A stretch of 64,000 bases of DNA from Ottowia sp. (GCF_047601385.1 NZ_JASGJP010000001.1:466487-530486), one strand, 5' to 3'; positions 5,167 to 63,545 are shown, counted from the first letter of the stretch. Notes: generated by a model not told the origin, from the letters alone. A program made the numbers and translations.

Positions 5167-7146
5167 ATGATCCAACTGCAAGACGTCACCCTGCGCCGCG
5201 GCGCCAAGCTGCTGCTCGACGGCGCCAGCGCCACCATTCACCCTGGCGAGAAGGTCGGCCTGGTGGGCCGCAACGGCGCCGGCAAGTCCACTCTGTTCGC
5301 CCTGCTGGACGGCTCGCTGCACGAGGACGGCGGCGACTTCAGCCTGCCGCGCGGCTGGCGCATTGCCCAGGTGGCGCAGCATATGCCCGAGACCGCCGAG
5401 CCGGCCACCGATTTCGTGCTTTCGGGCGACCAGCGCTTGCTGGACCTGCGCCAGCAGCTATCGAATGCAGAGCAGTCGGGCGACGGCCTGGCCATCGCCC
5501 AGGCGCACAGCGACCTGCAGGACGCCGGCGCGCACGACGCCCGCGCGCGCGCCGAGGCGCTGATCCTGGGCCTGGGCTTCACGCCCGAGCAGCTGGCCCA
5601 GCCCGTGGGCAGCTTCTCGGGCGGCTGGCGCATGCGCCTGCAACTGGCGCGCGCGCTGATGGCGCCCAGCGACCTGCTGCTGCTCGACGAGCCCACCAAC
5701 CACCTCGACCTGGACGCGCTGGTATGGCTGGAAGGCTGGCTGGCGCGCTACCCCGGCACGCTGATCGTCATCAGCCATGACCGCGACTTCCTGGATGCGG
5801 TGACGCGCGTCACCCTGCACATCGAGACCGGGCGCCTCGCGCGCTACGGCGGCAACTACAGCGCCTTCGAGGAGCTGCGCGCCGGGCAATTGGCCTTGCA
5901 GCAAGCAGCCTACGCCAAGCAGCAGGACAAGATCGCACACCTGCAGAAGTTCATCGACCGCTTCAAGGCCAAGGCCACCAAGGCGCGCCAGGCGCAGAGC
6001 CGCGTGAAGGCGCTGGAGCGCATGGAAAAGATCGCCCCGGTGCTGGCGGACGCCGAGTTCCAGTTCGAGTTCCGCGAGCCCGCCAGCCTGCCCAACCCCA
6101 TGCTGTCGGTGCAGGACGGGCGCTTCGGCTACCAGGACGACGCCGGCGCCGAGAAGACCATCCTCAGCGGCGTGGACCGCACCGTGCTCGCCGGCCAGCG
6201 CATCGGCATCCTGGGTGCCAACGGCCAAGGCAAGTCCACCTTCGTCAAGACCGTTGCGCGCGCGCTGCCGCTGCTGGGCGGGCGCCTGACCGAAGGCAAG
6301 GGCCTTTCCATCGGCTACTTCGCCCAGCAGGAGCTGGACGTGCTGCGCCCGCAAGACACGCCGCTGGAGCACATGGTGCGCCTGGCGCGCGAGACCGGCC
6401 AGGCCGACGCCGAGGCCGCGCGCGAGCAGCAGCTGCGCAACTTCCTGGGCATGTTCCACTTCCCCGGCGAGATGGCGGCGCAGCCCGTGGGCCGCTTCAG
6501 CGGCGGCGAGAAGGCGCGCCTGGTGCTGGCCATGCTGGTCTGGCAGCGCCCCAACCTGCTGCTGCTGGACGAGCCCACCAACCACCTGGATCTCGCCACG
6601 CGCCAGGCGCTGGCCGTGGCCCTGAACGAGTTCGAGGGCACGCTGATGCTGGTCAGCCACGACCGCGCGCTGCTGCGCAGCGTGTGCGACGAGTTCTGGC
6701 TGGTCGGCCGCGGCCGCGTGGCGCCCTTCGACGGCGACCTGGAGGATTACCAGCGCTACCTGCTGGACGAAGCGCGGCGCCTGCGCGAAACTGCCGGCGC
6801 TACCAAAACAGAAGCTGCCAGCGCTTTCCTGGCGGGCTCCGCAGGCCAAAATAACTCGAAAACCGCGCCCAACCCCGCCGAGCAGCGCCGCCTGGAAGCG
6901 CAGCGCCGGCAGCAGTTGGCCGAGCGCTCGCGGCCGCTCAAGCGCGCGCTGGAGCACGCCGAGCGCCGCATGCAGCAGCTCGGCGACGAGCGCGGCGCGC
7001 TGGAGCAGCGCCTGGCGACCCCATTGGCGCCGCCCGACATCGCCGAAGCCGGCCGGCGGCTGAAGGCGGTGGGCGACGAGATGGCCGCGCTGGAAGACGA
7101 ATGGCTGCGCCTGTCGGGCGAGATCGAGGCCATCGCCGGCGCGTAG
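5167..7146 (+). CDS. ABC-F family ATP-binding protein (YheS-like)
   Basis: Two ABC cassettes (GRNGAGKS, GANGQGKS, two LLLDEPTNHLD), no TM segments, C-terminal coiled coil. Confidence 0.9.
   Translation: MIQLQDVTLRRGAKLLLDGASATIHPGEKVGLVGRNGAGKSTLFALLDGSLHEDGGDFSLPRGWRIAQVAQHMPETAEPATDFVLSGDQRLLDLRQQLSNAEQSGDGLAIAQAHSDLQDAGAHDARARAEALILGLGFTPEQLAQPVGSFSGGWRMRLQLARALMAPSDLLLLDEPTNHLDLDALVWLEGWLARYPGTLIVISHDRDFLDAVTRVTLHIETGRLARYGGNYSAFEELRAGQLALQQAAYAKQQDKIAHLQKFIDRFKAKATKARQAQSRVKALERMEKIAPVLADAEFQFEFREPASLPNPMLSVQDGRFGYQDDAGAEKTILSGVDRTVLAGQRIGILGANGQGKSTFVKTVARALPLLGGRLTEGKGLSIGYFAQQELDVLRPQDTPLEHMVRLARETGQADAEAAREQQLRNFLGMFHFPGEMAAQPVGRFSGGEKARLVLAMLVWQRPNLLLLDEPTNHLDLATRQALAVALNEFEGTLMLVSHDRALLRSVCDEFWLVGRGRVAPFDGDLEDYQRYLLDEARRLRETAGATKTEAASAFLAGSAGQNNSKTAPNPAEQRRLEAQRRQQLAERSRPLKRALEHAERRMQQLGDERGALEQRLATPLAPPDIAEAGRRLKAVGDEMAALEDEWLRLSGEIEAIAGA
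6799..6862 (+). repeat. ~62-bp GCTAT-N7-ATAGC element, in-frame in the ABC-F linker
   Basis: GCTAC-CAAAACA-GAAGC, 28 nt, then GGCC and an A-rich tail. Confidence 0.75.
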
Positions 7147-7240
7147 GCCAAGACCCCGAAATCAGCCGCGTGGCGGCCGTGGTCATGTTTCCGCGCTACA
7201 GTCCCGCCGTCATCAACCTATCCGGGAAGGAAATAACGCC

Positions 7241-7489
7241 ATGGGCATTATCGTCACCATCATCGTCGGCTTCATCGTGGGCCTGATCGCGCGCGCCATC
7301 ATGCCGGGCGACCAGAAGATGGGCTTCATCATGACCACCATCCTGGGCATCGTCGGCGCCCTGCTGGCCAGCTACGGCGGCGCCGCGCTGGGCCTGTACG
7401 CGGAAGGCACGCCGGCCGGCTGGATCGCCTCGGTGGTCGGCGCGCTGATCGTGCTGTTCCTCTACGGCCTGGCCACCAAGAAGCGCTGA
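7241..7489 (+). CDS. GlsB/YeaQ/YmgE family membrane protein
   Basis: IIVGFIVGLIARAIMPG...GIVGA...ASVVGA pattern. Confidence 0.88.
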   Translation: MGIIVTIIVGFIVGLIARAIMPGDQKMGFIMTTILGIVGALLASYGGAALGLYAEGTPAGWIASVVGALIVLFLYGLATKKR

Positions 7490-7500
7490 GCCGCTCCAGG

Positions 7501-61300: not shown

Positions 61301-61346
61301 GCGATGGGGCGAGAAAGGGCTTCGACAAGCTCAGCCCGAACGGTGG
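60923..61346. repeat. Perfect 29-bp inverted repeats enclosing the GIY-YIG core
   Basis: CCACCGTTCGGGCTGAGCTTGTCGAAGCC (60923-60951) and its exact reverse complement (61318-61346); degenerate third copy near 60980-61013. Confidence 0.9.
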
Positions 61347-61385
61347 AGCATAAGCATCGCACGGGCAAGACGCGATACACCGAAG

Positions 61386-63545
61386 TCAGGCAGCCATCGT
61401 CGCTCTGATCTGCTCCAGCACATCCTTCGCACTCGCCGGAATCGGTGTTCCCGGCCCATAGATGCCCTTGACGCCCGCCTCGTACAGAAAGTCGTAGTCC
61501 TGCCGCGGAATCACCCCGCCGACGAAGACGATGATGTCGTCCGCGCCCTGGCGCTGAAGCTCGGCGATGATGGCCGGCACCAGGGTCTTGTGGCCGGCGG
61601 CCAGGGTGCTCACGCCGACGGCGTGCACGTCGTTCTCGATCGCCTGGCGGGCGCACTCCTCGGGCGTCTGGAACAGGCTGCCGATGTCCACGTCGAAGCC
61701 CAGGTCGGCGAAGGCCGTGGCCACCACCTTGGCGCCACGGTCGTGGCCGTCCTGGCCCAGCTTGGCGATCATCACGCGCGGGCGGCGGCCCTGGGCTTCG
61801 GCGAAGCCGGCGATCTCCTTCTTGAGGTTCTCCCAGCCCTCGGCCGAGTCGTAGGCGGCGGCATAGACGCCGGTGACTTTCTGCGTGTCGGCGCGGTGGC
61901 GCCCGAAGACTTTTTCCATGGCGTCGCTCACTTCGCCCACGGTGGCGCGGGCACGGATGGCCTCGACGGCGGCGGCCAGCAGGTTGCCGTCGCCGCTCTC
62001 TGCTATTTTTGTGATAGCTGCCAGCGCTTGGCTGACGCGCGCCGCGTCGCGTTTTTGCTTGATATCGTTCAGCCGCGCGATCTGCGCGTCGCGCACCTTG
62101 ACGTTGTCCACCTCCAGGATCTCGACCGGGTCCTCGTTCTTCAGCCTGTACTTGTTGACACCGACGATCACGTCCTTGCCGGAGTCGATCATGGCCTGCT
62201 TCTCGGCCGCGGCGGCCTCGATCTTCAGCTTGGCCCAGCCCGAGTCCACCGCCTTGGTCATGCCGCCCATGGCCTCGACCTCCTCGATGATGGCCCAGGC
62301 GGCGTCGGCCATGTCCTGCGTCAGCTTCTCCATCATGTAGCTGCCGGCCCAGGGGTCCACCACGCTGGTGATGTGCGTCTCCTCCTGGATGATGAGCTGC
62401 GTGTTGCGCGCGATGCGGGCGCTGAATTCCGTCGGCAGCGCGATGGCCTCGTCGAGCGCGTTGGTGTGCAGGCTCTGCGTGCCGCCGAACACCGCCGCCA
62501 TGGCCTCGATGGTGGTGCGCACCACGTTGTTGTAGGGGTCCTGCTCGGTCAGGCTCCAGCCGCTGGTCTGGCTGTGCGTGCGCAGCATCAGGCTCTTGGG
62601 ATTCCTGGGGTTGAACTCTTTCATGATGCGGCACCACAGCAGGCGCGCGGCGCGCATCTTGGCGATCTCCAGGTAGAAGTTCATGCCTACCGCCCAGAAG
62701 AACGACAGGCGCCCGGCGAAGGCGTCCACGTCCAGGCCCTTGGCCAGCGCGGTCTTCACGTACTCCTTGCCGTCAGCCAGGGTGAAGGCCATCTCCAGCG
62801 CCTGGTTGGCGCCCGCCTCCTGCATGTGGTAGCCCGAGATCGAGATCGAGTTGAACTTGGGCATGTGCTGCGCCGTGTACTCGATGATGTCGCCGATGAT
62901 CTTCATCGACGGCTCGGGCGGGTAGATGTAGGTGTTGCGGACCATGAACTCCTTGAGAATGTCGTTCTGGATGGTCCCCGCCAGCTGGTCCTGGCGCACG
63001 CCCTGCTCTTCCGCCGCCACGATGTAGCCGGCCAGGATGGGCAGCACGGCGCCGTTCATCGTCATCGACACGCTGACCTTGTCGAGCGGGATGCCGTCGA
63101 ACAGGATCTTCATGTCCTCCACGCTGTCGATCGCCACGCCGGCCTTGCCCACGTCGCCCGTCACGCGCGGGTGGTCGCTGTCGTAGCCACGGTGCGTGGC
63201 CAGATCGAACGCCACCGACACGCCCTGCCCGCCCGCGGCCAGCGCCTTGCGGTAGAAGGCGTTCGATTCCTCGGCGGTCGAGAAGCCCGCGTATTGGCGG
63301 ATCGTCCACGGCCGCACCGCGTACATGGTGGCCTGCGGACCGCGCAGGAAGGGCTCGAAGCCCGGCAGCGTGTTCGCGTAGGGCAGGCCCCGCACGTCCT
63401 CGGCGGTGTAGAGCGGCTTGACGGTGATGCCGTCGGGCGTGACCCAGTTCAGCGCCGCCACGTCGCCGCCGGGGGCGGACTTGGCGGCGGCCTTGTGCCA
63501 GTCGGCCAGGGTCGAGGGCTTGAATTCGGGGTGGTCGGTGCTCAT
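61386..63545 (-). CDS. scpA: Methylmalonyl-CoA mutase
   Basis: [31 protein letters not shown] (B12-binding DxHxxG). Confidence 0.97.
62002..62062 (+). repeat. 62-bp element in-frame in scpA
   Basis: GCTAT-TTTTGTG-ATAGC-TGCCAGCGCTTGG...GTTTTTGCTTGA. Confidence 0.8.

Follow-up and report, generated by a model that had tools for sequence, protein, structure and literature searches.

What is the short palindromic sequence that recurs at 19 places within 64,000 nucleotides of the genome of an Ottowia sp., and what has kept its geometry nearly constant while its sequence drifted? The stretch analyzed here (the window) is C1:466487-530486, in a genome that consists of one contig of 3,997,478 bp and has ∼70% G+C. 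The original prediction, made from the window alone, described a dense family of palindromic elements with fixed spacing and proposed that they were sites recognized by a protein rather than passively decaying copies. The dense family is borne out by the analysis, and the drifting sequence with conserved columns and spacing fits a protein-recognized site. The probability that the element represents an old family of the REP class, that is, of repetitive palindromic units recognized as DNA by a protein, appears to be evenly balanced. The competing readings are a maintained DNA tag, an RNA-level role, and a classical MITE (a miniature transposable element with inverted repeats).

The motif GCTAT-N7-ATAGC, with no more than one mismatch, has 10 matches in the window versus 0.39 expected. 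Fourteen window copies provided the profile for an nhmmer search of the genome, with matches kept at an E value of 0.01 or better, and a covariance model constructed from 70 genomic copies was run with the filters off. Strong copies, defined by a covariance-model E value below 1e-6, occupy 19 window loci (E values from 2e-22 to 1e-7). In the whole genome, nhmmer found 989 matches, 521 on the plus and 468 on the minus strand, which are evenly spread and collapse into 927 nonoverlapping loci; the two orientations are about equally frequent, and the element occupies ∼1.5% of the genome. Among the control matches, the highest score was 9.1 bits for the reversed genome and 12.8 bits for codon-shuffled coding sequence, compared with at least 17 bits for the real matches. 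Comparison of the whole window with Rfam at the gathering score gave no match, and an Rfam search by E value around the best window copy returned a single match at chance level (E value of 0.24). No paper describing the family was found in the searchable literature, and the element could be assigned to no named REP family, as had been stated at the outset. Of the 19 starting positions listed originally, 17 were recovered within 1 to 5 bases; the start given as 28594 actually belongs to a copy at 28634-28700 on the plus strand, the one at 16082 is marginal, and a copy at 5410-5476 on the minus strand was absent from the list but was detected in the window by the covariance model.

The unit is ∼64 to 66 nt long, and its model comprises 68 columns and ∼56 bits. 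Consensus columns 3 to 67 read TGCTAY-N7-ATAGCTGCCRGCGCTTGNCNGRCRRGCGCTGGAGGCCGATTTGACTCNNAA. The unit has a GCTAY module that contains an invariant CT, followed by a 7-nt AT-rich spacer, an RTAG head, an imperfect palindrome with arms of 12 to 14 bp (GCTGCCRGCGCTTG and CRRGCGCTGGAGGC) directly after the head, and an AT-rich tail of ∼15 nt that ends in TCAWAA. Columns C5, T6, A18, G19, C20, C27, and G28 are 99 to 100% conserved, and the head (columns 16 to 19) has frequencies of 0.79 for A and 0.19 for G in its first column, 0.87 for T, 0.99 for A, and 0.99 for G. Approximately 25 columns are 90 to 100% conserved, and those of the spacer and loop approach randomness. The predicted fixed geometry mostly stands, as 471 of the 480 full-length matches have no net indel and frequent indels are absent. 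Similarly, the 7-nt spacer and the 28-nt distance to the GGCC box are constant in all well-preserved window copies that were read, but the geometry is not absolute: the copies starting at 24884, 28634, 5410, and 41654 are degenerate and deviate from the model length by 1 to 9 nt.

The two arms of the palindrome (columns 19 to 32 and 38 to 51) pair in 88% of the cells versus at most 46% in slid controls. The pairing is not equivalent on the two strands, with ∼1,270 T·G or G·T cells that work on the forward strand versus ∼160 that work on the reverse strand only. When folded as single-stranded DNA, the consensus forms a 14-bp stem on the forward strand (−13.3 kcal/mol) and a 7-bp stem on the reverse strand (−10.8 kcal/mol); the corresponding stems in the best window copy (47411-47478) are 11 bp and 7 bp. 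Because of the G·T pairs, the forward strand alone makes a good hairpin.

The copies diverge from the consensus by an average of 26% of 64 positions. Retention of the conserved columns and spacing, despite the lack of near-identical copies, argues for constraint over passive decay. The original objection to passive decay is also supported by the near-random variable columns next to the ∼25 conserved ones, by the rarity of indels, and by same-site copies retained in several species, namely, in scpA, at the pccB end, and at the rng-maf junction. With the covariance model, the element was found in 89 of the 200 sampled genera of Comamonadaceae, with scores that often reached the scoring cap, and an exact 38-mer pattern has matches in Acidovorax, Alicycliphilus, and Simplicispira. 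A strict pattern has 592 matches in the Ottowia genome and between 0 and 444 matches in 24 congeners. Subfamily composition varies as well: a loop variant that is abundant in the species designated G007 is rare in the Ottowia genome studied here (G000). Nothing in these counts or in the arrangement of the copies points to a nucleoid-organizing site, as had been suggested originally. Regular spacing was rejected, given a coefficient of variation of 1.15, and the distribution by replichore (forward strand lagging for 489 loci and leading for 438) shows no significant bias.

Placement was analyzed using genes predicted by a purpose-made codon-bias caller instead of the annotation (3,576 genes, 88% coding). 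The 927 loci include 640 intergenic ones, 104 that lie across a gene end, and 183 within coding sequence. Their density per kb is 2.6 in convergent, 1.4 in tandem, and 0.5 in divergent regions, and the median distance of the intergenic copies to the upstream stop codon is 6 to 9 nt. The edges of the element are rich in stop codons, which are found in columns −1/0 when the gene shares the strand of the element and, when the gene comes from the opposite side, at the TCA in columns 61 to 63. Nearly every copy is a singleton, with 13 neighboring pairs within 300 nt among the 927 loci. In Comamonadaceae genomes, start and stop codons can be miscalled owing to the element.

Within genes, 87 full-length copies are located 60 nt or more inside an open reading frame, and their flanks have a G+C content at third codon positions (GC3) of 0.79 to 1.0 in the same frame on both sides. 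Two main open frames, one per orientation, account for 72 of these copies, and minor frames account for the other 15; such a restriction would be expected from stop-codon avoidance. In some genes, the element has entered as a whole block, as shown by differences between species in the genes for ABC-F and UvrA proteins. Around residue 324 of the ABC-F protein, G000 and seven other species have nothing, and an element-encoded segment is found in G003, G013, G008, G001, and G002. In the UvrA linker, the element is present in seven species and missing from G006, G013, and three outgroups. Alignments with paralogues show gaps of 14 to 22 residues at the copies in UvrA, a MoeA-like protein, a LysE-like protein, and a protein of ∼1,190 residues that is presumably DnaE-like.

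Published REPs have a GTAG-type head, G·T pairs, TAG stops used by flanking genes, and copies in uvrA and dnaE (PMC3733652). Assignment of the Ottowia element to the REP class is proposed because its layout, placement, supply of stop codons, and copies in repair genes match these features and because the block insertions show that the element can arrive whole. According to this scheme, the forward strand folded as single-stranded DNA would be the recognized form, and the copies would have been made by a Y1/HUH enzyme of the RAYT kind. They could then persist either because the recognized columns are under purifying selection or because the copies are corrected against each other, and the stop codons and peptide segments supplied to the host genes would be a by-product. 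If so, the Comamonadaceae, a large family from water, soil, and wastewater, carry a REP-like element of their own, which marks many gene ends and adds peptide segments to housekeeping enzymes.

No cognate enzyme is encoded in the window, in agreement with the original prediction, and the entire genome contains a single Y1_Tnp gene, C1:1601630-1602328. Its product scores 39.7 bits with the Pfam Y1_Tnp model and 79.4 bits with the NCBIfam REP_Tyr_transpos model, just below the cutoff of 80, and contains the sequences HVH and GRY, corresponding to the HUH motif and catalytic Tyr that characterize RAYT and TIRYT proteins. In 9 of the 10 Ottowia loci that were read, this single-copy gene is located upstream of gltB. 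An element copy abuts the Y1 stop codon in 3 of the 10 species (G000, G018, and G017), as judged by the covariance model; such copies had been seen by eye in all ten species, but the model backs only three of them, and the wider claim was dropped. Just upstream of the gene, at C1:1602364-1602420 of G000, outside the window, TGCTATYTGG, which equals the 5′ end of the element, is repeated four times in tandem. The Y1 gene can be named as a candidate partner enzyme of the element only tentatively, and such a partnership is doubtful.

Several observations weigh against the REP-class assignment. The Y1 gene is present in 177 of the 200 genera compared with 89 for the element, and Ottowia species that have no copies of the element retain the gene, so nearly universal a gene making the co-occurrence of the two uninformative. 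The copy at the Y1 stop codon is weak evidence, too, because elements adjoin so many gene ends (927 loci for 3,576 genes). Moreover, the Y1 gene is bracketed by inverted GGGGTCAGATC repeats, a separate family of ∼50 copies, in 8 of the 10 Ottowia loci read; its flanks contain GGGGTCAG, which fits the published GGGGWSAS motif of terminal inverted repeats. This is how a TIRtron is arranged according to Di Nocera et al., and the locus is probably not a REPtron. The head of the element is ATAG in 79% of the copies, not GTAG, and the near absence of anything but singletons distinguishes the family from REPIN/BIME, whose units form inverted doublets or arrays. Strict REP membership fails for the GTAG head and for the dimer arrangement and is doubtful for the REPtron arrangement. 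There are no young copies, as the nearest neighbor of a copy differs from it at 4 to 21 of 64 positions and no pair is closer. Covariation in the palindrome beyond sequence conservation was not detected in comparison with shuffled controls. Finally, the copies in scpA and nadD are colinear with the native protein, which is not what transposition predicts. (A second repeat family, seen in the window at 39441-39740 with the core (C/G)AGGGTCAGAT(G/C)A, is related to the GGGGTCAGATC repeats.)

These colinear copies are among the reasons to consider that the element is not a transposon but a maintained tag, spread or kept by sequence-specific drive or by host selection, with the native DNA being overwritten and not interrupted. 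Taken as a whole, this alternative seems rather unlikely. The drive could be biased uptake with recombination, as for the uptake signals USS and DUS, or the ∼900 other copies could act through short-patch conversion. It stays alive because transposition leaves unexplained both the combination of saturated variable columns with a strict core and the colinear copies. The copy in nadD (29249-29316, on the minus strand, which is the gene strand; 59.3 bits) is full length, encodes ATVSIAARAGQTGAEGQFDLKN, and spans a native β-strand with the invariant Arg133, with no net insertion and no change in protein length. It is colinear with at least 40 NadD sequences, including Ottowia orthologues and distant homologues, and with solved structures. 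An outgroup nadD that is 56% identical retains parts of the motif, GCTAC-N7-GTAGCTG and TTTGATATCAAAAAC, but not the palindrome.

The second such copy is in the methylmalonyl-CoA mutase gene scpA (61386-63545, minus strand), where it occupies 61999-62066 on the plus strand, opposite to the gene (43.3 bits), and encodes native residues with no insertion. The protein aligns without gaps with human MUT, and the site is colinear in 14 orthologues that range from ordinary GC-rich codons (G030 and G014) through intermediates (G010, G001, and G009) to element-like sequences of 30 to 43 bits; in species that lack the family, the site is decayed. In these orthologues, GC3 is 0.35 to 0.57 in the 23 element codons versus 0.76 to 0.96 elsewhere in the gene; the values for the Ottowia genome itself are 0.57 and 0.96. 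The copies in nadD and scpA lie over conserved native protein, are spelled in rare codons, and leave the length unchanged. More generally, 17 of the 31 gene-internal copies that could be tested have no more than 4 gapped residues relative to a paralogue. The conservation of core columns and spacing in a family with no young copies and the about equal orientations also favor a tag.

On the other side, ∼56 bits over 68 columns together with a long palindrome are far above known uptake signals and ordinary binding sites, block insertions do exist, and the range of abundance in congeners, from 0 to ∼600, does not indicate an essential role. Overall, conservation of synonymous codons is no higher in the scpA copy than in the rest of the gene (3 of 10 versus 68 of 171). 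A related reading can be held with somewhat more confidence than this alternative, though still with less than even confidence. On this reading, the element may act as a genome-wide DNA tag that overwrites coding sequence by templated short-patch conversion or sequence-specific drive, and not by insertion alone. Conserved protein segments, such as the strand of NadD that holds the invariant arginine and a helix of the mutase, would come to be written in rare codons matching the element, and this spelling would be kept across species until the family is lost from the lineage. Predicted neither by transposition nor by neutral decay, the colinear copies matter most among the in-gene copies, and they offer a tractable case of the long-term upkeep of a repeat without copying or of its spread by conversion or drive.

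An RNA-level role, be it that of a transcription terminator, of a stabilizer in the 3′ untranslated region (UTR), or of a small RNA, is quite improbable. Such a role could be suggested by the position of most copies just 3′ of stop codons and by pairs that are G·U compatible on one strand, and REPs elsewhere can serve as 3′-UTR elements. However, the copies show no preference for either orientation with respect to the upstream gene (110 versus 106 and 85 versus 119), typical copies have no T-run behind them and are not called as terminators, and a fifth of the copies are located within genes, on either strand. The failure to match Rfam is against this role as well. Mutual information links only adjacent columns and reveals neither a long-range subfamily structure nor Watson-Crick covariation, and, since its variation does not rise above that of the shuffled controls, the palindrome is to be regarded as conserved DNA and not as covarying RNA. 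Least probable is a MITE of the classical kind, descended from a DDE insertion sequence and bearing terminal inverted repeats and target-site duplications: it would account for a small, dispersed element of high copy number, but the hairpin is strand asymmetric, the ends (5′ TTGCTAY and 3′ YTCAWAA) are not inverted repeats of each other, and no target-site duplication or border was identifiable in filled/empty comparisons, none of which (L025, a metagenome contig from a close relative; joined-flank BLAST within the genome; and DNA alignments of UvrA and pccB) had a clean empty site.

The remaining window copies, whose bit scores are also those of the covariance model, illustrate the same range of placements. 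The gene for an ABC-F ATPase (5167-7146, plus strand) contains two of them: a degenerate copy at 5410-5476 on the opposite strand (minus; 37.0 bits, E value of 2.6e-9), with weak matches at the equivalent place in several ABC-F orthologues, and a full copy at 6796-6863 on the gene strand (plus; 53.3 bits), located in the C-terminal linker and read as ATKTEAASAFLAGSAGQNNSK. Element-like peptides are found at the latter site in most Ottowia orthologues and in none of the outgroups. The next three copies are associated with three tandem genes at 10536-15561 that encode Lcl_C and Big_9 domains, the last of them with an IPTL-CTERM sorting signal. One is intergenic, in a divergent region just 5′ of the first gene (10457-10524, minus strand, 44.3 bits), another is located at the junction between the stop codon of 10536-12041 and the start region of 12038-14569 (12047-12114, plus strand, 45.8 bits), and the third fills the junction between 12038-14569 and 14641-15561 (14572-14639, plus strand, 59.3 bits). 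Since copies fill both junctions, the second and third genes may have been annotated with wrong starts. The marginal match at 16082-16132 (plus strand, 15.4 bits, E value of 0.022, not matched by nhmmer) retains the first hairpin and has diverged in the rest.

Between two minus-strand genes, a copy at 17038-17105 (plus strand, 52.4 bits) extends with its tail over the stop codon of 17098-18513. The copy at 24884-24949 (plus strand, 60.2 bits) fills a convergent gap, with the stop codons of both flanking genes touching its ends, and is replaced by unrelated sequence in L025. This contig is ∼90% identical to the window, its genes being 85 to 94% identical in DNA, and it has a copy (44.7 bits) at the same site as the one at the junction of the RNase G gene and maf (26430-26497, plus strand, 54.6 bits). 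The copy at 28634-28700 (plus strand, 44.3 bits) is also found in L025. It is located in an rsfS-like gene (28399-29070, minus strand), within the Lys/Ala-rich C-terminal tail of the encoded ribosome-silencing factor, an extension of ∼100 residues that resembles the histone-like HC2. L025 differs from the window in two other places. The window segment 27060-27934, ∼870 bp with a weakly coding open reading frame at 27172-27873, corresponds there to ∼90 bp of tandem GTTGAGC-like repeats, and the purD and yebC-like genes, which overlap by 4 bases in the window (32049-32054), are separated in L025 by 193 extra bases (reverse complement 8231-8424).

Two further degenerate copies are located at 35330-35397, over the 3′ end of gene 35300-36172 on the minus strand (plus strand, 32.0 bits, E value of 1.1e-7), and at 41654-41712, between two minus-strand genes and 9 nt below the model length (minus strand, 33.7 bits, E value of 3.1e-8). 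Intergenic copies are found at 36539-36606 (plus strand, 58.9 bits), at 43565-43632 in a divergent region (minus strand, 50.2 bits), at 51243-51310 at a gene 3′ end (plus strand, 65.7 bits), and at 52282-52349 between tandem genes (minus strand, 77.4 bits). The best window copy, at 47411-47478 (minus strand, 77.9 bits), lies over the stop codon of 47467-48693. Similarly, the copy at 56572-56639 (minus strand, 53.7 bits) covers the last codons and the stop codon of pccB, the gene for the propionyl-CoA carboxylase β subunit (56630-58162, minus strand); G003 (51.7 bits) and G015 (35.4 bits) have a copy in this position as well, and it is degenerate or absent in other species. A small GIY-YIG-like open reading frame at 60887-61346 (minus strand), between two metabolic genes, is bounded by inverted repeats of 29 bp (CCACCGTTCGGGCTGAGCTTGTCGAAGCC with its complement) that are unrelated to the 65-nt element.

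Among known systems, GTAG-tagged REPs and their RAYT transposases have been described in E. coli, Pseudomonas, and Stenotrophomonas (PMC2817692, PMC3733652). The Ottowia element resembles them in having a head of four nucleotides that adjoins an imperfect palindrome with G·T pairs, in its hundreds of copies, and in its position behind stop codons, in tandem and convergent spacers but rarely in divergent ones, with ends that supply stop codons. The two are also alike in that an in-frame copy is occasionally found in uvrA, dnaE, or a similar gene and that the Y1 gene is single copy. Besides the head, the Ottowia unit differs in being a composite of fixed length, with an upstream GCTAY-N7 module and the tail, in the ∼20% of copies that are gene internal and in part colinear with the native protein, and in its Y1 gene, which is flanked by another repeat and has the element at its stop codon in only some species.

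The Rickettsia palindromic elements (RPE) are ∼100 to 150 bp long, carry a CGTC tag, occur in the small AT-rich genomes of obligate intracellular bacteria and have been described as insertions (PMC10969869). Like RPE, the Ottowia element is a palindromic repeat that is read in frame, in a few permitted frames, inside unrelated housekeeping genes. It differs in its length of 65 bp, its RTAG head, its free-living host with 70% G+C, and the replacement of native codons by some of the copies; the family is confined to Comamonadaceae and is set apart from RPE by this description. The uptake signal sequences (USS) of Pasteurellaceae and the DNA uptake sequences (DUS) of Neisseriaceae have cores of 9 to 12 nt, which flanks extend to ∼30 nt, and do not require a hairpin. 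They share with the Ottowia element a frequency of about one copy every few kb, with both strands used, a family-wide distribution with variants, and a presence in coding sequence that leaves protein length unchanged, whereas the Ottowia unit is twice as long, has a 12- to 14-bp palindrome, and also occurs as block insertions. To our knowledge, no link between a TIRYT and a REP-like family has been described. The TIRtron/TIRYT systems (PMC3733652) also have a Y1 gene between inverted repeats that form a moderately abundant family of their own, and the Ottowia locus departs from them in that a copy of the element is found at the Y1 stop codon as well in three Ottowia species.

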